26,750 nt of DNA. Source: a virus. Taxonomy: Duplodnaviria > Heunggongvirae > Uroviricota > Caudoviricetes. Below the pieces are notes generated by a model, which saw only the letters and a program-made list of their open reading frames with translations, ran no database searches and had not been told where the DNA came from. Position 1 is the first letter of the stretch, and every line of letters begins with the position of its first letter. The stretch is from IMG/VR virus record IMGVR_UViG_2531839662_000023; one strand, written 5' to 3'. A program made the position numbers and the translations under genes. This document shows, piece after piece, positions 1 through 18,487 of this stretch.

Positions 1-1164
1 TTACGCCTTCTTTATATCCTCCATAATTTCAGAGTGGGACATATTTGGGACATTATCACCAAAAATGTCGTCTATTTTCCTCGCATGCTCTGTCAAATGA
101 TTAGGCGCAAGGTGAGCATACCTACGAACCATTTCTATGGACTCCCATCCGCCCATTTCCTGAAGCACTGATAATGGGACGCCTGACTGAATCAGCCAGC
201 TTGCCCAGGTGTGTCTGAGGTCATGGAAACGGAAATCTTCAATTCCTGCACGACGACAAGCTGATAGCCATGATGTCTTGCTGTCGATGCGCATCTTCCT
301 GACCGCAGGCGTTGATGTTCCATCTGCTCGCTTAGCCGCCTTGGTATGTACAAACACCCATTTGTGATGCTTGCCTATTTGATCACGCAACACTTTACAG
401 GCGGTATCGTTCAGCGCCACACCAATGGCGCGGTTTGATTTGCTCTCTTCTGGATTCACCCAGGCAACTCGTCGCTGCATGTCGATTTGTTGCCATTCCA
501 GATTTATGATGTTCGACTTTCTCAGACCAGTTGCCAGCGCAAACTTGACGACAGATTTCAGTGGTTCGGGGCACTCATCAATAAGGCGTTTTGCTTCCTC
601 CTTTTCCAGCCATCTGACTCGCTTGTTTCTGACCGCTGGTATCTTGATGACAGGCGCTTTTTCCAGCCACTTCCAGTCGCGTTCTGCAGCACGGAGAATG
701 GCCTTTATCATGGCAAGATGCTTTGCCTTTGTCTGAGTTGATACTGGCTTTGGTTCATAAACAGGCAGTTCTTTACCTTTCCTGATGGCGGCCTGAACTT
801 TCTGTTTCCATATTTCTTTCGTCTTTCTGTTATGCATTCTGCTTACAGCAGAGTAAATCTTTGCCTCCGAGATATCTTTAAGCCTTATACCCTCAAAATG
901 TTCAAGCCAGAACTCAATCCGGCTTTTATCTGAATCGAGAGATTTTTTATCAGCTTTTTCCTCAAGCCATCTTAGGCAGGCCTCTTCAAAAGTGACATCA
1001 GGTAAATCCCCTAGCTTTTCTACTCGCCAGAGTTCTGCTTTTCGCTTGTCGTGCAACTCCTGAGCTTGCCGCTTGTCCTTTGTGCCAAGAGATTCCTTAA
1101 TTCGTTTCCCGCCCGGGAGCGAATACGAGGCATACCATATTTCATTTCTGCGGAAGAGTGACAT
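1..1164 (-). CDS. intD: Phage integrase, tyrosine recombinase (DLP12 IntD-like)
   Basis: Complete 387-aa ORF with the C-terminal catalytic motif [10 protein letters not shown]...RYAHL typical of tyrosine recombinases. Sequence recalled as DLP12 integrase. The stop codon is at position 1-3, so the att site lies outside the window. Confidence 0.9.
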
Positions 1165-1391
1165 TTTCTTTCCTCTGTTATGCCATCACCCGCGCTCACC
1201 TGGACAGTATGCAGCGGAGACTGAAGCGCCGCAATGCAGGCTTGCCGTGTTGTGAGGTAAGGAGATTTTGGCTTGGTTGGATCTTTACGTGTTGCCTGTA
1301 GGCGGCCTGTTCGTATCCAGTTGGTGGCGGTTGGTCTGGATATCTTAAGAAACTGACAGGCCTCATCGAGTGTGAGGCTGTATGATTCCAT
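1020..1391 (-). CDS. xisD: Excisionase-like, AlpA-type HTH protein; possibly degenerate
   Basis: Internal Met at 1391 begins [31 protein letters not shown], an AlpA/Xis-like HTH. The ORF runs about 145 nt into the integrase start, which is unusually long for an excisionase and suggests loss of the original stop. Confidence 0.45.
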
Positions 1392-1641
1392 GGTTACCTC
1401 TGCTTTTTGAACGCATGTCACGTAACTTCTTAATGTGTTCTGCCGTTTCGATCTCTTCTGCTATCCGATCTGCATCAGCTTTATTCACAGGTTCAAAGTC
1501 ATGATTAAAGCGGAACATGCTGGCGATACATGTTCTGCCTTTTCGGATGTAGTGAACTTTGTTGTGGGTAGAACGCAGGATTTTGCAGGGAGTGCCGTGG
1601 TGGTCGACGTACCAGGTGTTAGGAAAAATGATTCTGAACAT
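1363..1641 (-). CDS. Hypothetical early-left protein
   Basis: 92-aa ORF on the same strand as int/xis, located where lambdoid phages carry ea-type accessory genes. No family recognised with confidence. Confidence 0.3.
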   Translation of the reverse strand: MFRIIFPNTWYVDHHGTPCKILRSTHNKVHYIRKGRTCIASMFRFNHDFEPVNKADADRIAEEIETAEHIKKLRDMRSKSRGNHGIIQPHTR

Positions 1642-1804
1642 TTTTACACCTCAGTTGGACGATGTTGAAATTTGCTGCTTTGGCTAACGTATGAAATTCT
1701 TCGTCTGTTTCTACTGGTATTGGCACAAACCTGACTCCAATTTGAGCAAGGCTATGTGCCATCTCAATACTCGTTCTTAACTCAACAGGAGATGCTTTGT
1801 GCAT
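1619..1804 (-). CDS. Hypothetical small protein
   Basis: 61-aa ORF co-oriented with the early-left operon, ending just before the IS insertion. Weak support. Confidence 0.2.
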   Translation of the reverse strand: MHKASPVELRTSIEMAHSLAQIGVRFVPIPVETDEEFHTLAKAANFNIVQLRCKNVQNHFS

Positions 1805-1980
1805 ACCGCCTCCCGTTTATTATTTATCTTCTCAGCCAGCCGCTGTGCTTTCAGTGGATTTCTGATAACAGAAAGGCCGGGAAATACCCAGCCTCGCTTT
1901 GTAACGGAGTAGACGAAAGTGATCGCGCCTACCCGGATTGAACCGCCCCGGGTTTCCTGGAGAGTGTTTTATCTGTGAAC

Positions 1981-2871
1981 TCAGGCTGCCAGATCATTGT
2001 TTCCGATGGAAGCATAATAAGCTTTTTCTGCTTCTGCCGGAGGAGTATGGCCCAGCCTTCCCAGCAATCGTCGATTGTTATACCAGTCCACCCACGTTAG
2101 TGTGGCCAGTTCCACTTCTGCACGGTTTTTCCAGCTCTTACGGTGTATTACCTCCGCTTTGTAAAGACCATTGATGCTCTCAGCCATCGCGTTGTCATAC
2201 GAGTCGCCTGTACTCCCTGTTGATGCCAGTAATCCGGCTTCTTTTAGTCGCTCCGTATAGGCCAGTGACACATACTGAGAGCCTTTATCGCTGTGATGGA
2301 TGGTGCCAGACGGACGACGGGCCCACAACGCCTGCTCCAGCGCATCCAGCACGAATGTCGTTTCCATAGACGATGAGACCCGCCACCCCACGATGTATCC
2401 GGCAAACACATCAATGATGAACGCCACATAGACGAAGCCCCGCCATGTGCTGACGTAAGTAAAATCAGCCACCCACAGCTGGTCAGGTCGTTCTGCCACG
2501 AACTGACGGTTTACGCGGTCGCCTGCGGCAACGGCTTTCCGGCTGATGGTCGTACGGACCTTTTTACCCCGGAGAACACCGGCAAGTCCCATAACCGCCA
2601 TGAGGCGCGCCACTGTACATCTGGCCACCCTGATTCCTTCCCGTAACAACTGACGCCAGACTTTACGCACACCGTACACCTGATGATTTTCATCGTATAC
2701 GCGCTGTATCTCTCTCTTCAGCCAGTCATCGTGCTGCGCACGGGCACTGCGTTTATCCGGATGATGTCGCTGTTGCTGACAATGGTAATACGTTGACGGG
2801 GCAATATGCAGTTCGCTGCATACCGGTCCGACCCCGTACTGCTCACGCAGCTTATCCAGCAGTGGCATCAT
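1981..2871 (-). CDS. IS3-family transposase OrfB (DDE integrase core)
   Basis: 296 aa with an rve-type DDE region (WVADFTYV...HHSDKGSQY...[10 protein letters not shown]). Overlaps orfA by 4 nt, the usual arrangement for programmed frameshifting in this family. Confidence 0.85.
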
Positions 2872-3194
2872 TTTTTCCAGAGGCGGTCGAACTCCGCCTT
2901 CGCAAAATAAGCGGAAGCCTGGCGAAGGATATCGTTACTGCGGCGCAGTTCACGATTTTCACGTTCCAGCTCTTTCAGACGCTGACGTTCAGCGCTGGTG
3001 AGCCCACCATCACCGCCCCCGGTATCCCGCTCATGCTGGCGAACCCAGACACGCAGAGTCTCCGGCGTACAGCCAATCTTTGGGGCAATGGAACAAATTG
3101 CCGCCCACTGTGAGTCATATTCATCCTGACTTTCCAGAACCATACGAATCGCCCGCTGACGGACTTCGGGGGAAAAACGAGTATTTTTAGTCAT
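2868..3194 (-). CDS. IS3-family transposase OrfA (HTH)
   Basis: 108 aa beginning [22 protein letters not shown] with a leucine-zipper-like C-terminus ([27 protein letters not shown]). Recalled as IS629/IS1203-type OrfA. Confidence 0.85.
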
Positions 3195-3268
3195 CCTGTT
3201 TACCTCTTTCTCAGGGAGTTTAGTCTCCAGGATTTCCGGGGCGGTTCAGATATTATCGTGAGGATGCG

Positions 3269-3949
3269 TCATCGCCATTGCTCCCCAAATACAAAACCAA
3301 TTTCAGCCAGTGCCTCGTCCATTTTTTCGATGAACTCCGGCACCATCTCGTCAAAACTCGCCATGTACTTTTCATTCCGCTCAATCACGACATAATGCAG
3401 GCCTTCACGCTTCATGCGCGGGTCATAGTTGGCAAAGTACCAGGCATCTTTTCGCGTCACCCACATGCTGTACTGCACCTGGGCCATGTAAGCCGATTTT
3501 ATTGCCTCGAAACCACCGAGCCGGAATTTCATGAAATCCCGGGAGGTAAACGGGCATTTCAGTTCAAGGCCGTTGCCGTCACTGCATAAACCATCGGGAG
3601 AGCAGGCGGTGCGCATACTTTCGTCGCGATAGATGATCGGGGATTCAGTAATATTCACGCCGGAAGTGAATTCAAACAGGGTTCTGGCGTCGTTCTCGTA
3701 CTGTTTTCCCCAGGCCAGCGCCTTAGCATTAACTTCCGGAGCCACACCGGTGCAAACCTCAGCCAGCAGGGTGTGGAAGTAGGACATTTTCATGTCAGGC
3801 CACTTCTTTCCTGAGCGGGGCTTTGCTATCACGTTGTGAACTTCTGAAGCGGTGATGACGCCGAGCCGTAATTTGTGCCATGCATCATCCCCCTGTTCGA
3901 CAGCTCTCACGTCGATCCCGGTACGCTGCAGGATAATGTCCGGTATCAT
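3269..3949 (-). CDS. exo: Lambda-type 5'-3' exonuclease (Red alpha)
   Basis: 226 aa, near-identical by recall to lambda Exo ([40 protein letters not shown]...GEQWR). Appears intact. Confidence 0.9.
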
Positions 3950-4326
3950 GCTGCCACCTTCTGCTCAGTGGCTTTCTGTTTCAGGAATCCAAGAGCTTTC
4001 ACTGCTTCGGCCTGTGTCAGTTCTGACGATGCGCGAATGTCGCGGCGAAATATCTGGGAACAGAGCGGCAATAAGTCGTCATCCCATGTTTTATCCAGGG
4101 CGATCAGCAGAGTGTTAATCTCCTGCATGGTTTCATCGTTAATGGCTTTTTTGCTGGCCCCGTGGCGTTGCAAATGATCGATGCATAGCGATTCAAACAG
4201 GTGCTGGGGCAGGCCTTTTTCCATGTCGTCTGCCAGTTCTGCCTCTTTCTCTTCACGGGCGATCTGCTGGTAGTAACGCGCCCAGCTCTGAGCCTCAAGA
4301 CGATCCTGAATGTAATAAGCGTTCAT
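3946..4326 (-). pseudogene. In-frame fusion of gam N-terminus to bet C-terminus
   Basis: Residues 1-60 match lambda GamS ([17 protein letters not shown]...[10 protein letters not shown]). Residues 61-126 match the lambda Bet C-terminus ([57 protein letters not shown]). Overlaps the exo start by 4 nt, as bet does in lambda. Confidence 0.7.
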
Positions 4327-4401
4327 GGCTGAACTCCTGAAAATGGCTGTGAAAATATCGCCCGCGAAATGCCAGGCTGATTAGGAAAACAGGAAAGGGG
4401 A

Positions 4402-4692
4402 TTAGCGATTCAGGCCGTTACCGCGTCCGTCGAGAAAAACTTCCACGAGCAAATCACGGGTATAAGTGCGCTCGATGCCGCGATGCAGATAAAGCCGTCC
4501 GCGTAAATTAGCTGATGCAGTCCAGGTACCATCTTTGTGTTTGACCAGCATTCCTGGCATGACCGCACCTCGATTAACGGTCTGCGTTCCGTAATGTTGA
4601 TGAACCATAAAAACTCCTGCCCGTAAGCTGGGCTGCTGAACATATAGAGACTTCTGCGCGTATTCAGGCGGTGGATGGCCGCCGGTTGTCAT
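4402..4692 (-). CDS. Hypothetical protein at the kil/cIII position; start uncertain
   Basis: Open frame ends 76 bp upstream of the gam start. Candidate starts are ATG at 4692 (GAGG about 10 nt upstream) and ATG at 4608 (AGGAG 5 nt upstream). The 136-aa track ORF begins at a TTG. No family recognised. Confidence 0.3.
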
Positions 4693-5049: not shown

Positions 5050-5082
5050 GAGGAAAAGAAAACCCGGCGCGGTTGCCGGGTA
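5050..5082 (-). terminator. Rho-independent terminator downstream of the lipoprotein gene
   Basis: GC stem CCCGGC(5063-5068)/GCCGGG(5075-5080), followed on the minus strand by TTTTCTTTTCC, immediately 3' of the stop at 5089. Confidence 0.5.
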
Positions 5083-5088
5083 TGATTA

Positions 5089-5469
5089 TCAGTCAGCCCA
5101 ACCTGATTTCGAGTTTATTTGGGTTTCTGACATTGTGTATTTCTTAATCGTGTCATCGTTAAAAAGAATAGTAAGTTCTTTTTTCGTACCGTTCGTTCCG
5201 TTATGGAATAATCCATAGAATGGAATAAAAGTGGTGCCATTAACTTTTACTTTTGCAAAGGCGTACTTCCAGATCTCCTTTCCACTGTCAGTATATGAAA
5301 CAGCATCAGGAGAACCAAAGTAAGATTTAACCTCATTCTTGGTTGTTTTACCTTCCTGAAGTTTAGACTGGACACTAATTTCAGTTTCATTTTTGAGTTG
5401 CTGGTTGCCTGAAGAAGCACACCCAGCCAATACAGATGCCATCATGGCAGCGATTAGGATTTTTCTCAT
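5089..5469 (-). CDS. Predicted lipoprotein, BamE/SmpA-OmlA-like fold
   Basis: 126 aa with signal peptide and lipobox MRKILIAAMMASVLAG-C. Mature region resembles the BamE fold (KLQEGKTTKNEVKSYFGSPD...WKYAF...LTILFNDD). Sits between cI and the early-left genes, where lambda carries rexAB. Confidence 0.6.
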   Translation of the reverse strand: MRKILIAAMMASVLAGCASSGNQQLKNETEISVQSKLQEGKTTKNEVKSYFGSPDAVSYTDSGKEIWKYAFAKVKVNGTTFIPFYGLFHNGTNGTKKELTILFNDDTIKKYTMSETQINSKSGWAD

Positions 5470-5698: not shown

Positions 5699-6388
5699 TT
5701 AACCATGCTTCCTGTACGTCTGCGGCATGCTTCCAATGACCTTACCGAATATGAACACCCGGTTCATCTCGTCTTTCTCGATCGGGTCCCACGGCGAGTA
5801 GCTCTTGTTATCAGAGATAACCAGCAGCTTATCCTTCATCATTTGAAGACGTTTTACATGGGCAGTGTCGTCGTACAGAAACGCATAGATGCCATCACCG
5901 TCGAAAGATTTAACAGTGATATCAACGAACAGCAGGTCACCTGGTTCGATCGTCCCTGACATGCTGTCACCTCGCACGTTAATGATGCGGATATTTTCCG
6001 CCTTCCTGCCATCGAACATGTGACGAGCATCGTCAAACGAGTACTCAACCGAGCGTAGAACTTCTACAAACTCACGGTTGATTACACCTGGCCCGGCACT
6101 GACTTCTATATCAAGAACGTCAATTTTGAAGTATTTGGAATGGCTGACAGTTGATTGTATTGGTTGCACTGTACTGTCTGACATATTTCCAACGCCAGAA
6201 GATAACCATTCTGCGCGTACACCCAAAGCGTTCGCGATCTCCACGATTTTAGTTGTTTGGTTAGCTTTCCCTGTTTCGATTTTCTGAATAGCAGCCTGGC
6301 TAACCCCGACCAAATCCCCAAGCGCCTTTTGTGTAAGGCCTCGCGCTAATCTGGCTTCTTTAAGTCTTTCTGAGAGTGTTGTTTTCAT
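5699..6388 (-). CDS. cI: CI-type phage repressor (HTH_XRE plus S24 LexA-like peptidase)
   Basis: 229 aa. N-terminal HTH (LTQKALGDLVGVSQAAIQKIETGK) and C-terminal S24 autoproteolysis domain (GDSMSGTIEPGDLLFVD...KRL). Divergent from the cro-like gene. Confidence 0.85.
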   Translation of the reverse strand: MKTTLSERLKEARLARGLTQKALGDLVGVSQAAIQKIETGKANQTTKIVEIANALGVRAEWLSSGVGNMSDSTVQPIQSTVSHSKYFKIDVLDIEVSAGPGVINREFVEVLRSVEYSFDDARHMFDGRKAENIRIINVRGDSMSGTIEPGDLLFVDITVKSFDGDGIYAFLYDDTAHVKRLQMMKDKLLVISDNKSYSPWDPIEKDEMNRVFIFGKVIGSMPQTYRKHG

Positions 6389-6792: not shown

Positions 6793-7332
6793 ATGCAACC
6801 ACTTACATACCAACAGACTAGCGGATTTATTCCGACTGCGGTGATAAATCGTTCTCAAACAAAACAAGCTCCAGGCCACGAAAAAATCCGTGATGCCGTC
6901 CGCGCCTGGTCGGCTGTAGATAATCAGGATGTCGTTGCCGCACTCATTGTGAATGAGTATCGGGAGCAGGGCGACGGCACCATCGATTTCCCTGATGATG
7001 TCAGCCGTGCACGCCAGAAGCTGTTCCGCTTCCTCGATAACAAATTCGATTCTGAAAAATACCGAAATAACGTGCGTGAACTGACCCCGGCAATTCTGGC
7101 GGTACTACCGCTGGAATATCGCGGTTACCTGGTTGAGCAGGATAGCTTCATGACTCGGTTGGCTGAAATGGAAAAGGAACTCAGTGAGGCAAAACAGGCT
7201 GTCATTCTCAACGCACCACGCCACCAGAAACTGAAGGAAATGAGTGAAGGTATTGTGTCGATGTTTCGTGTGGACCCGGATCTGGCTGGTCCATTAATGG
7301 CGATGGTGACCACCATGCTGGGGGCAATATGA
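6793..7332 (+). CDS. YdaT-like protein (CII-position regulator)
   Basis: 179 aa immediately downstream of the cro-like gene. The motif LTPAILAVLPLEYR resembles Rac YdaT as recalled. Confidence 0.5.
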   Translation: MQPLTYQQTSGFIPTAVINRSQTKQAPGHEKIRDAVRAWSAVDNQDVVAALIVNEYREQGDGTIDFPDDVSRARQKLFRFLDNKFDSEKYRNNVRELTPAILAVLPLEYRGYLVEQDSFMTRLAEMEKELSEAKQAVILNAPRHQKLKEMSEGIVSMFRVDPDLAGPLMAMVTTMLGAI

Positions 7333-7418
7333 CAGGTTCAGAAATGGCGAAAGTCGGTCTGCGGGAACAGAACCGACTTTCAGGTGCAAATCGTAACACA
7401 CTCATTGCGGGAGGAATT

Positions 7419-8348
7419 ATGGCAAACACTGCTGAGATATTCAATTTTCCAGTGCCGGATGCGGCACAAAAGGAGCCGCGCGTGGCAGATCTCGATGATG
7501 GTTATACGCGCATTGCAAATGAGTTGCTGGAAGCTGTGATGCTGGCCGGATTAACACAGCACCAGCTTCTGGTCTTCCTGGCTGTCATGCGCAAAACATA
7601 TGGCTTTAATAAAAGACTGGATTGGGTGAGCAACGAGCAACTTTCCGAATTGACCGGGATATTGCCGCACAAGTGTTCTGCTGCAAAAAGCGTTCTGGTA
7701 AAGCGTGGGATTCTTATTCAGAGCGGGCGAAATATCGGCATTAATAATGTGGTCAGTGAATGGTCAACATTACCCGAATCAGGTAAGAAAAATAAAGTTT
7801 ACCTGAAAGAGGTAAATTTACCTGAATCAGGTAAGAAAAGTTTACCCAAATCAGGTAAAGGCGTTTACCCGAATCAGGTAAACACAAAAGACAAACTAAC
7901 AAAAGACAATATAAAACCTTTTTCGTCCGAGAATTCTGGCGAATCCTCTGACCAGCCAGAAAACGACCTTCCTGTGGTGAAACCGGATGCTGCAATTCAG
8001 AGTGGCAGCAAGTGGGGGACAGCAGAAGACCTGACCGCCGCAGAGTGGATGTTTGACATGGTGAAGACCATCGCGCCATCAGCCAGAAAACCGAATTTTG
8101 CAGGGTGGGCTAACGATATCCGCCTGATGCGTGAACGTGACGGACGTAACCACCGCGACATGTGCGTGCTGTTCCGCTGGGCATGCCAGGACAACTTCTG
8201 GTCCGGTAACGTGCTGAGTCCGGCCAAACTCCGCGACAAGTGGACCCAGCTCGAAATCAACCGAAACAAGCAACAGGCTGGCGTGACAGCCGGCAAACCA
8301 AAACTCGACCTGACGAACACTGACTGGATTTACGGGGTGGATTTATGA
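7419..8348 (+). CDS. Replication initiator O (lambda O family)
   Basis: N-terminal domain resembles lambda O (RVADLDDGYTRIANELLEA...RKTYGFNK). Strong SD GGGAGG before the ATG at 7419. Stop overlaps the P start (ATGA). The 339-aa track ORF has a non-homologous upstream extension. Confidence 0.85.
   Translation: MANTAEIFNFPVPDAAQKEPRVADLDDGYTRIANELLEAVMLAGLTQHQLLVFLAVMRKTYGFNKRLDWVSNEQLSELTGILPHKCSAAKSVLVKRGILIQSGRNIGINNVVSEWSTLPESGKKNKVYLKEVNLPESGKKSLPKSGKGVYPNQVNTKDKLTKDNIKPFSSENSGESSDQPENDLPVVKPDAAIQSGSKWGTAEDLTAAEWMFDMVKTIAPSARKPNFAGWANDIRLMRERDGRNHRDMCVLFRWACQDNFWSGNVLSPAKLRDKWTQLEINRNKQQAGVTAGKPKLDLTNTDWIYGVDL
7769..7881. repeat. Origin iterons inside O (ori-lambda-like)
   Basis: Five 18-bp repeats of TTTACCYRAATCAGGTAA (one degenerate) starting at 7769, 7798, 7817, 7841 and 7864. 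Each holds an internal TTACC/GGTAA inverted repeat. An A-rich tract follows at 7880-7925. Confidence 0.6.
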
Positions 8349-10569: not shown

Positions 10570-10580
10570 TGGATTTGCCC

Positions 10581-11486
10581 CTATATTTCCAGACATCTGT
10601 TATCACTTAACCCATTACAGGCCCGCTGCCGCAGATATTCCCGTGGCGAGCGATAACCCAGCGCACTATGCGGATGCCATTCGTTATAATGCTCGAACGC
10701 CTCTGCAAGGTTCTTTGCTGCCGTTAACCCGTCTGGTTTGGGCATGATACTGATGTAGTCACGCTTTATCGTTTTCACGAAGCTCTCTGCTATTCCGTTA
10801 CTCTCCGGACTCCGCACCGCCGTGTTCTTCGGTTCAAGTCCCAACATCCGGGCGAACTGGCGTGTTTCATTAGCCCGGTAGCATGAACCATTATCCGTCA
10901 GCCACTCCACTGGAGACGACGGAAGATCGTTGCCGAAGCGGCGTTCCACCGCTCCCAGCATGACGTCCTGTACTGTTTCACTGTTGAAGCCGCCGGTAGT
11001 CACCGCCCAGTGCAGTGCCTCACGATCACAGCAGTCCAGCGCGAACGTGACACGCAGTCTCTCTCCGTTATCACAGCAGAACTCGAACCCGTCAGAGCAC
11101 CATCGCTGATTGCTTTCTTTCACGGCCACTCTGCCTGTATGTGCCCGTTTCGATGGCGGTACAGCAGGTTTTCGCTCAAGCAACAGCGCATTCTGGCGCA
11201 TGATCCGGTAAACACGTTTGGCATTGATCGCAGGCATACCATCAAGTTCTGCCTGTCTGCGAAGCAGCGCCCATACCCGACGATAACCATACGTGGGCAG
11301 CTCTCCGATAACATGGTGTATACGGAGAAGCACATCCGTATCATCAGTGTGACGACTGCGGCGGCCATCCATCCAGTCATCGGTTCGTCTGAGAATGACG
11401 TGCAACTGCGCACGCGACACCCGGAGACAACGGCTGACTAAGCTTACTCCCCATCCCCGGGCAATAAGGGCGCGTGCGCTATCCAC
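10581..11486 (-). CDS. insD: IS2 transposase InsD (OrfB)
   Basis: 301 aa ([30 protein letters not shown]...), recalled as IS2 InsD. Confidence 0.9.
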
Positions 11487-11809
11487 TTTTTTGCCCGTCC
11501 ATATTCAACGGCTTCTTTGAGGAGTTCATTTTCCATCGTTTTCTTGCCGAGCAGGCGCTGGAGTTCTTTAATCTGCTTCATGGCGGCAGCAAGTTCAGAG
11601 GCAGGAACAACCTGTTCTCCGGCGGCGACAGCAGTAAGACTTCCTTCCTGGTATTGCTTACGCCAGAGAAATAACTGGCTGGCTGCTACACCATGTTGCC
11701 GGGCAACGAGGGAGACCGTCATCCCCGGTTCAAAGCTCTGCTGAACAATTGCGATCTTTTCCTGTGTGGTACGCCGTCTGCGTTTCTCCGGCCCTAAGAC
11801 ATCAATCAT
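11444..11809 (-). CDS. insC: IS2 transposase InsC (OrfA)
   Basis: 121 aa from the internal ATG ([40 protein letters not shown]...), recalled as IS2 InsC. The track ORF has a 15-aa extension. Confidence 0.9.
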
Positions 11810-11900
11810 CTGTTCTCCAATGACTAGTCTAAAAACTAGTATTAAGACTATCACTTATTTAAGTGATACTGGTTGTCTGGAGATTCAGGGGGCCAGTCTA

Positions 11901-16962: not shown

Positions 16963-18060
16963 TTAGAACTGGTAAACCAGACCTACAGCAACGATGTCAT
17001 CAGTGCTTACACCGAGTGCTTTAGTGAAGTCATTTTTGTCAAGCAGGTTGATTTTGTAATCAACGAAAGTAGACATATTTTTGTTGAAGTAATAGGTTGC
17101 ACCTACATCAACATATTTGACTAAGTCCTGATCGCCCCATACTCCAAGATCCTTACCTTTAGATTGCAGGTAAGCAACGGACGGACGCAGACCGAAATCG
17201 AACTGATATTGTGCAACAGCTTCGAAGTTTTGGGCTTTATTAGCAACGAAGTGATCAGCAAATACAGTCATATTCTGGGTTTCAGAATAGGTAGTGGCCA
17301 GGTAAATGTTGTTAGCGTCATATTTCAGACCTGCGGCCCAAACTTCTGCATTTTTACCGGAAGCAAATACTTCAGGAAGAACTTTCCCTGCATTAACTTG
17401 AGTGTCGGTACGATCAGATTTCGCATAAGTTGCACCGATACCGAATCCTTCGTATTCATAGGTAGCAGAGAAACCGAAGCCATCACCGTTACCTTCAGTG
17501 TAGTTATCGAAATCGCTACGATCGTTTTTGCCTTGGTACTGAGCAGCAAAGTTCAGACCATCAACCAGACCAAAGAAGTCGTTGTTACGATAGGTTGCAA
17601 CACCAGTTGCACGTTGAGTCATGAACACGTCGGTTTGAGTCCAAGTGTCACCACCGAATTCTGGCAGGACGTCAGTCCACGCACCGATGTCGTATGCTAC
17701 ACCGTAGTTACGGCCGTAATCGATGGAGCCGTAGTCACCGAATTTCAGGCCAGCGAAGGCAAGACGGGTTTTATCTTTGGAGGAACCTTGAGATTCAGCG
17801 CGGTTGCCTTTGAATTCATATTCCCACTGACCGAAACCAGTCAGTTGATCGTTGATTTGGGTTTCACCTTTGAAGCCAAGATGGGCATAAGTAGTATCAC
17901 CATCATCTGCATCATTAGAGGAGAAGTAGTGCTTAGCATTAACTTTCCCGTACAGATCCAGCTTGTTACTGTCTTTATTATAAATTTCAGCTGCCTGAGC
18001 AGACATCGCCATCAGTACTGATGCAGCTACAGCAGAAATTGCCACTGTTAATTTTTTCAT
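16963..18060 (-). CDS. nmpC: General porin, OmpC/OmpF/PhoE family (NmpC-like), intact
   Basis: 365 aa from [30 protein letters not shown]..., with signal peptide and a C-terminal beta-strand ending in F (VGLVYQF). The track ORF adds 20 aa upstream. Confidence 0.85.
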
Positions 18061-18487
18061 CGTGAGCCCTTTTTTTGAACTATTATTAAAAAATGATGTC
18101 ACTGCGCGATAAATATTCATCTAATCAATGTGATTATTTCAAGATGTAAGTTTTGGTTTCTCGTTTGATTTGTGAAGTAGATCTCTATTTTTATCTGAAC
18201 TTTTTTCTATCGAATCCTATTCATGGCTCTTGGCTGAATAAAAATAAATCTATTAGCCAATTTATATTAACGGCTGTTATTTATAAGCGCTCTATAATTT
18301 GAAGGTTCAATTTAAACCGGCTAAAAATAACACTGGAAATTATTTTTTGGTTATTTGTTGAGATTTGCTTATGTATTTGTAGTGGTGTTTTCAATACTCG
18401 GTAGCATTCTCTCAAATATCATTTAGTGGTTTACGTACGTAAAAAATTGGTTATGCTGTTAAGAGTGGTTACTTCGTCACACAGCTT

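Follow-up and report, generated by a model that had tools for sequence, protein, structure and literature searches.

A chimeric gam-bet pseudogene in a DLP12-family prophage, probably left by a recent short-homology deletion between two re-used TA dinucleotides

Among the closest described relatives of the locus studied here is the Red/Gam module of phage lambda. In this module, residues 1 to 177 of Bet carry out annealing and oligomerization and residues 178 to 261 bind Exo (PMC9512822). In the crystal of the complex, Bet residues 183 to 194 are disordered and the rest folds into three helices that sit as a bundle on the Exo trimer; on its own, the C-terminal domain is monomeric and fails to bind the SSB tail (PMC6393309). 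GamS acts as a dimer whose long N-terminal helix plugs the single-stranded DNA (ssDNA) channel of RecB (PMC5218532). Here, we have analyzed a stretch of 26,750 nucleotides (nt) from a virus of the Caudoviricetes (IMG/VR record IMGVR_UViG_2531839662_000023), hereafter the window, in which an open reading frame (ORF) joins the beginning of gam to the end of bet, next to exo. We give a probability of about 85% to the reading that this ORF is a chimeric pseudogene, produced by a recent 707-bp deletion in the exo-bet-gam region of a DLP12-family prophage integrated at argU, with its two ends at TA sites that have been re-used by other deletions.

The locus shares with lambda Red/Gam the gene order, the sequence (94 to 98% protein identity), the GamS ribosome-binding site, the ATGA coupling of bet to exo, and an intact Exo. 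Unlike lambda, it lacks Bet 1-197 and Gam 63-98; the remainders make up a single ORF of 126 amino acids (aa), and the module would no longer anneal ssDNA. The parts of the locus are as follows.

3946..4326, minus strand: chimeric ORF, gam codons 1-62 fused to bet codons 198-261, 126 aa (ORF list, alignments and annotation).
4143..4326, minus strand: unambiguous gam part, GamS codons 1-61 and the first base of codon 62 (alignment, PDB and Pfam).
4140..4142, no strand assigned: deletion joint, a 3-nt microhomology that reads TAA on the plus strand and TTA on the coding strand (DNA alignments).
3946..4139, minus strand: bet part, codons 198-261, essentially the whole ordered three-helix C-terminal domain (alignment, PDB 6m9k and 8tfu).
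4333..4337, minus strand: native GamS ribosome-binding site AGGAG, kept ahead of the fusion 6 nt 5' of the ATG (read from the sequence).
3269..3949, minus strand: exo, full length, 226 aa, Pfam YqaJ (ORF list, alignment and Pfam).

A reading of this DNA made from its letters alone (hereafter the sequence-only reading) had proposed that the N terminus of GamS was joined to the last ~66 residues of Bet, with loss of the Bet annealing domain and of the Gam C terminus. The alignment with lambda gam and bet that it called for shows that the N-terminal part is Gam-like and the C-terminal part Bet-like, with the junction in a TTA. Residues 1-62 of the fusion have 59/63 identities with lambda Gam (GamS numbering), and residues 62-126 have 63/65 identities with lambda Bet 197-261. 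The fusion thus stood, with a Bet part of 64 residues in place of ~66. The losses are also borne out: the last 36 residues of GamS are missing, as are the Bet annealing domain (1-177) and the linker. The alignment with lambda Gam ends at GamS residue 63, as does the one with the PDB structures, and the Pfam match to Gam (PF06064) covers profile positions 1-64 of 98, short of the whole domain. On the other side, the Pfam scan of the fusion did not match RecT (PF03837) and the Bet alignment is confined to residues 197-261.

The structures tell the same two-part story. A search of the PDB matched fusion residues 1-63 to the Gam structures 2uuz and 5mbv and residues 61-126 to the Bet C-terminal domain structures 6m9k and 8tfu, both halves being 94-97% identical to solved structures. 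The N-terminal Gam helix is retained (59/63 identities over residues 1-63). Fusion residues 62-125 align with positions 4-67 of chain D of 6m9k, and also with 8tfu (E ~1e-35), and the complete three-helix bundle (~195-261) is present. The closest described structure for this half is that of Red-beta's C-terminal domain (PDB 6M9K and 8TFU), which has lambda Orf as a structural relative: fusion residues 63-126 are 97% identical to the crystallized Exo-docking bundle. Unlike in Red-beta, the C-terminal domain here would, as judged from the sequence, hang on a Gam helix and not on an annealase.

The sequence-only reading was also right that the reading frame, the bet-exo overlap and exo are preserved. 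The stop codon of the 126-aa ORF overlaps the exo start in ATGA (3946-3949). Exo aligns over 226/226 aa with 98% identity to lambda Exo, with an identical catalytic region (D119/E129/K131), and matches Pfam YqaJ (PF09588) with E = 2.6e-29.

The deletion itself can be defined to the nucleotide. Relative to phage Turner and to lambda, exactly 707 bp are absent: the DNA aligns in two pieces that overlap by 3 nt, and a split into two matching pieces is seen with every intact phage. The coding strand is GCC ATT ACC in gam and CCG GTT AAC in bet; the window has GCC ATT AAC, a hybrid that places the crossover inside the shared TTA. The central TA of the joint is the crossover dinucleotide of the gam site, F1 (GCCAT-TA-CCCGT), and of the bet site, F2 (CCGGT-TA-ACGAT). 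What was lost comprises gam codons 63-98, the gam-bet spacer and bet codons 1-197. The features of a microhomology deletion are all found, i.e., intact parents (the bovine strain EC42405 and phage Turner), a TTA at both ends, and one retained copy. The sequence-only reading had placed the junction two residues too early. Ala61 is a native variant of Gam, encoded with the same base in Turner and EC42405, so that the protein joint lies two residues later and the "AI" belongs to Gam.

Two other origins of the joint were considered. An assembly artifact is ruled out by its presence in 7 complete genomes from different laboratories and in 3 IMG/VR contigs, and by the exact protein being on 99 contigs. 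A deletion adjacent to an insertion sequence (IS) does not fit either: no IS end lies at the joint, where gam directly abuts bet, and the IS closest to it ends at 3248, a distance of 891 bp.

The window is identical to a DLP12-type prophage at the tRNA-Arg gene (argU) of the porcine enterotoxigenic Escherichia coli strain UMNF18. The joint was found in 7 of 5,426 complete E. coli genomes, all seven from pigs. An intact sister is present in EC42405, which has the same prophage at the same argU site with intact Bet and Gam. The two prophages do not differ in their IntD, Exo, Kil, lipoprotein and CI proteins. Over ~11.5 kb, the window differs from EC42405 by 5 single-nucleotide polymorphisms (SNPs), the 707-bp deletion, a 683-bp deletion, the insertion of an IS3-family element and that of an IS2. 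The flanks of the joint show 0 mismatches with EC42405 in 883 nt on the left and 255 nt on the right, which implies that the deletion is very recent. The suggestion of a recent microhomology-mediated deletion made by the sequence-only reading is thus supported by the 3-nt TTA and the mismatch-free flanks. The three features that place the prophage and mark its other recent changes are the following.

1..1164, minus strand: intD integrase, which places the window at the argU (tRNA-Arg) attachment site of DLP12 (annotation and comparison with K-12).
1939..3248, minus strand: IS3-family insertion of 1310 bp with a 3-bp target duplication (GAT), located within orf60a/DUF1317 and 20 bp downstream of the stop codon of exo (annotation, Rfam and sister comparison).
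10570-11900: IS2 of 1331 bp with a 5-bp target duplication, splitting ybcK, a large serine recombinase gene (sister comparison).

The same reading had pointed to DLP12-like prophages and to a comparison with them. Like DLP12 of K-12, the window has the argU site and intD, and the genes emrE-ybcK-ybcL-ybcM-ybcN-ninE-ybcO-rusA-quuD-nmpC are colinear at 99.9-100% identity. Both prophages are decaying by deletions and IS insertions, and the two joints of K-12 likewise have their crossover at a TA flanked by GG. They differ in what was lost: K-12 DLP12 lacks everything from the middle of exo to P (bet, gam, kil, cI, cro and O), whereas the window retains these genes except for the 707 bp. The IS also differ, since the window has the IS3-family element and the IS2, whereas K-12 has an IS3 in renD and an IS5 in nmpC. 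The IS3-family element, the sole Rfam match of the window (the ALIL IS3-family frameshift pseudoknot, 2797-2913), is absent from the intact sister and is therefore a second recent event of decay. It sits 7 nt from a recurrent deletion site, GCGCC-TA-CCCGG. The 683-bp deletion, with its joint at 1681-1682, took out a TraR/DksA-like gene as well as a hypothetical one, and has TG rather than TA as its microhomology. Finally, an IMG/VR contig of the same lineage (L032) keeps the fusion and lacks the equivalents of window positions 1005-3919 (part of int, the IS and nearly all of exo) and 7164-7542, which shows that decay continues and that exo is not being preserved.

The fusion itself is one more deletion pseudogene of a decaying prophage, already held by the databases under misleading names. 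RefSeq annotates the ORF in UMNF18 as two abutting pseudogene fragments, a Bet without its N terminus and a Gam without its C terminus, and GenBank names the exact fusion protein (AEJ55159.1) "recT domain protein" or "recombinase RecT." A separate in-frame fusion, of Gam 1-41 to Bet 190-261 (113 aa, with a GCTG microhomology), is present in strain PI12, from a pig in Cuba (L004, 5001-5342), and is listed in RefSeq as an intact "Gam family protein" (WP_257160974.1). In-frame chimeras such as these two get misannotated as intact genes. The breakpoint of the PI12 fusion in Bet, P190 ("Q|PERDITPV"), is a minor recurrent one that is also found in P0044 and P0051.

More attention is deserved by the pattern of re-used breakpoints, which is moderately surprising and which the sequence-only reading could not see from the window. 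We searched 5.8 billion protein clusters and counted breakpoints among the best 120 of 272 matches. Among these, ~11 of the ~24 distinct Bet chimeras start exactly at N198, and 8 to 11 of the ~20 Gam chimeras end at I62/T63. At the DNA level, the bet site TA-ACGATGAA is joined to at least 12 different upstream partners, which include gam, bet codon 68, a DUF2528 gene, a site upstream of Q and the gamL leader. The gam site GCCAT-TA has at least 8 partners, five seen in DNA and three decoded from protein sequence; two of the latter three joints run out of frame into orf60a (P0007 and P0022). Deletions also reach both sites from the opposite side. A prophage of strain CFSAN061772 (L011) keeps Bet 1-197 and has lost the C-terminal domain, exo and part of int, and two other loci (L070 and L071) keep the 3' part of gam. 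When three control positions at a distance of 12 nt were scanned in the same way, in one collection, there were no breaks and a single SNP variant. Hence, each of the two breakpoints is an exact TA dinucleotide that many independent deletions in E. coli lambdoid prophages have used again, from either side. A scan of IMG/VR for F2 joints that retain Bet 1-197 turned up only natural N198S variants. This substitution of Ser for Asn at position 198 is common in Bet (L043-L069 in IMG/VR; GTT AGC or GTT AGT) and abolishes the GTTAAC palindrome at the bet breakpoint. We also sampled E. coli genomes with a query of intact bet and gam; this revealed CFSAN061772 and gave no count of broken copies, being uninformative on this point because most genomes also hold an intact copy.

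The very deletion of the window seems to have happened more than once. A contig from another prophage (L030) has the identical joint, with 21 differences from the window in the flanks and no IS. It corresponds to the intact prophage of YZB902, which has a different integrase and a different locus, minus exactly 707 bp, again with 0 mismatches in 883 + 255 nt of flank. The identical 707-bp deletion thus probably arose at least twice, which is a simpler reading than gene conversion and is preferred because many other joints are anchored at each of the two sites.

The joints share a signature. Each hybrid joint takes the base ahead of its TA from the left parent and the one that follows the TA from the right parent, which places the crossover within the 2-bp TA. 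GGTA/TACC flanks are found at 9/16 native sites, against 14.9% of all TA in the intact prophage (binomial p ~1.5e-4, calculated post hoc). In three events anchored in gam, the two sequences that bound the deleted segment are reverse complements of each other (TA-CCCGT...ACGGG-TA), as would be expected if slippage had occurred across the base of a stem. The partners of the bet site often share with it an imperfect direct repeat of the form CGG(T)TA. The signature extends to K-12 MG1655, where both DLP12 joints (L038, 2574-2579 for xisD/exoD and 2877-2878 for exoD/peaD) have at their centre a TA that follows GG. The xisD/exoD joint falls again on the orf60a site GCGCC-TA-CCCGG, to which gam is joined in P0007, from another E. 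coli lineage. The TA rule is not universal: the 1681-1682 joint of the window itself uses TG.

These observations can be compared with what is described for short-homology illegitimate recombination and replication slippage in E. coli. Such deletions likewise have a direct repeat of 2 to 3 nt at the parental ends, of which one copy is kept. As in slippage deletions, some of our events have short inverted repeats inside the direct repeats (a stem-base geometry) and others have imperfect direct homology of 5 to 8 nt. What differs is that about half of the sampled gam and bet joints fall on one dinucleotide per gene, from both sides, with a GGTA/TACC bias. Such extreme re-use is not predicted by the length of microhomology or by significant local hairpins. 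The joints would be compatible with a process of breaking and rejoining, or of template switching, in which the crossover takes place within the 2-bp TA. This process may prefer a TA flanked by GG (GGTA/TACC), and the events anchored in gam may prefer partners whose inner flank complements the inner flank of gam. Local hairpins were tried as the cause of the hotspots and are unsupported, F1 lying at the loop-stem boundary of a 5+5 bp stem with z = -0.7 and F2 being unstructured. Pseudo-ends of IS1 or IS3 were also rejected: the cleavage they predict lies 2 to 5 nt from the observed joints, and the IS of the window has other ends.

The reading of a recent short-homology deletion at two fragile, re-used TA sites is the best-supported account, and an enzyme-driven process is its main rival. 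The account should be taken with caution, since several points weigh against it. The census of hotspots comes mostly from one protein search, whose query ended and began at the two breakpoints and of which the best 120 of 272 matches were used. The controls at the DNA level are few, three positions in one collection, and the GGTA motif is a post hoc finding. At the bet site, some joints have GTT or a single A in place of TA (P0025 and P0048). Local hairpins are not significant. In addition, L030 could in principle be a tract of gene conversion of <270 bp that moved the deletion between prophages.

This last point can be broadened into a history in which a single ancient deletion spread between prophages by homologous recombination, with no recurrence of the F1-F2 joint. 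Lambdoid prophages recombine readily, and the nearest informative SNPs around the joint of L030, at -195 and +75, leave room for a short conversion tract. However, each deleted allele matches its own intact sister over 883 + 255 nt, which would require both crossovers to have occurred within 270 bp, and the spread of one allele does not explain the many other joints that are anchored at F1 or F2 with differing partners. We thus regard this history as unlikely. Another possibility is that the in-frame fusion is a selected, functional gene, i.e., a partner or regulator of Exo, or an ORF whose frame is kept for translational coupling and expression of exo. The fusion is indeed in frame, has the GamS ribosome-binding site, a complete Exo-docking domain and the ATGA coupling, and pig strain PI12 has its own, different in-frame fusion of Gam 1-41 to Bet 190-261. 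The sequence-only reading had taken the frame as a hint of selection or of a recent microhomology-mediated deletion. Yet, in both genes the break comes right after a codon's first base (codon phase 1), and this shared phase is enough to keep the fusion in frame without any recourse to selection. Selection for the frame or for the Bet C-terminal domain is argued against by the out-of-frame joints of the gam site with orf60a (P0007 and P0022) and by the use of the bet site in L011, where the C-terminal domain and exo were lost. Furthermore, L032, a descendant of the same lineage, has since lost exo, an intact repressor and a terminator-like hairpin stand ahead of the operon, and the allele is rare (7/5,426 genomes) and too recent for selection to be assessed. 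A selected function is thus very unlikely.

The enzyme-driven alternatives bear on why the same dinucleotides are re-used. In its general form, the idea is that both breakpoints and the other TA sites of the GGTA type, such as those of the DLP12 joints in K-12, are preferred substrates of an unrecognized TA-specific activity of breakage and rejoining, which could belong to a YbcK-like serine recombinase or to a host enzyme. We find this doubtful; if true, such an activity would drive a stereotyped decay of lambdoid prophages and explain the repeated 707-bp deletion that inactivates Red. A more specific version, which we hold to be rather unlikely, invokes a site-preferring enzyme (the large serine recombinase YbcK or a TA-specific transposase) that would act through 2-nt self-complementary TA ends at loose GGTA sites, in a quasi-programmed excision. 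The crossover within 2 bp in every hybrid joint would fit a serine recombinase. The same TA is used from both sides, GGTA/TACC is enriched, the identical deletion recurred, and this prophage family and the related phages encode a large serine recombinase at a distance of 6 kb. However, no dyad-symmetric or extended consensus was seen among the 16 native sites, and the joints with GTT or a single A (P0025 and P0048) depart from TA. While ybcK is intact in K-12, EC42405 and related active phages, it is split by IS2 in the lineage of the window, though this insertion is recent. The emrE-ybcK block is a common mosaic module of active phages, and its boundaries are uninformative about YbcK sites; a search on YbcK activity found nothing in the literature library used. 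Finally, illegitimate recombination by gyrase or topoisomerase IV would proceed by subunit exchange at 4-bp staggered cuts, and quinolone-trapped gyrase is known to cleave before G with such a stagger (PMC6379681). The joints can be written as NTAN boxes, often with a G before them, and livestock isolates are exposed to quinolones. But a 4-bp stagger predicts that all four bases come from one parent, against the observed hybrids (e.g., TTAG from TTAC and ATAG or GTAG), and F2 (TTAA) lacks the G/C preference. This makes a topoisomerase extremely improbable as the cause. A search of the same library on hotspots of red/gam deletion or on DLP12 joints found nothing. If an exhaustive census agrees with the re-use of F1 and F2 by short-homology deletions, the decay of prophages would be partly stereotyped and not random, with illegitimate recombination at short homologies that can be tested in vivo.

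The consequences for the Red system follow from the literature on lambda. Red recombination is expected to be dead, with the annealing domain gone, and Gam is left without its C-terminal third. Exo would be stranded without Red recombination, intact and still translationally coupled to the upstream ORF. If ever expressed, the fusion would tether Gam's N-terminal helix to the Exo-docking bundle of Bet and could at best bind Exo unproductively. We therefore read the ORF as a pseudogene remnant of ordinary prophage decay. The neighboring elements of the leftward early operon are the following.

4402..4608, minus strand: kil-like gene for a cell-division inhibitor, directly upstream of the fusion in the leftward early operon (KilR Pfam match on a homologue).
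5062..5081, minus strand: terminator-like hairpin (7 pairs, 6 of them G-C, followed by a T-run), between the lipoprotein gene and kil/gam (sequence scan).
5699..6388, minus strand: intact CI-like repressor, with a helix-turn-helix and an S24 peptidase (annotation and Pfam).

The intact CI-like repressor implies that the operon with the fusion and exo should be silent in the lysogen, and leftward transcripts would need to read through the hairpin to reach these genes. Between the repressor and kil, the window has a gene for a BamE/SEN1984-like lipoprotein (5089-5469), followed by the strong terminator-like hairpin, and no gene for an N-like antiterminator. Since the related active phage Turner has a similar layout, antitermination in this group of phages may not use an N protein.

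Two minor observations concern the quality of genes in and around this prophage. A run of six A in gam codons 59-60 (T6 on the plus strand, ~4147-4152), which lies just upstream of the breakpoint in gam, seems to be a hotspot of frameshifts or of sequencing errors; many "Gam" ORFs of 113 aa in the databases read ...ASKKPLPV... (e.g., P0038, with 310 members, P0059, P0095 and P0109). The nmpC/ompC-like porin gene (16963-18120) is intact and encodes 385 aa, whereas nmpC of K-12 is split by IS5.

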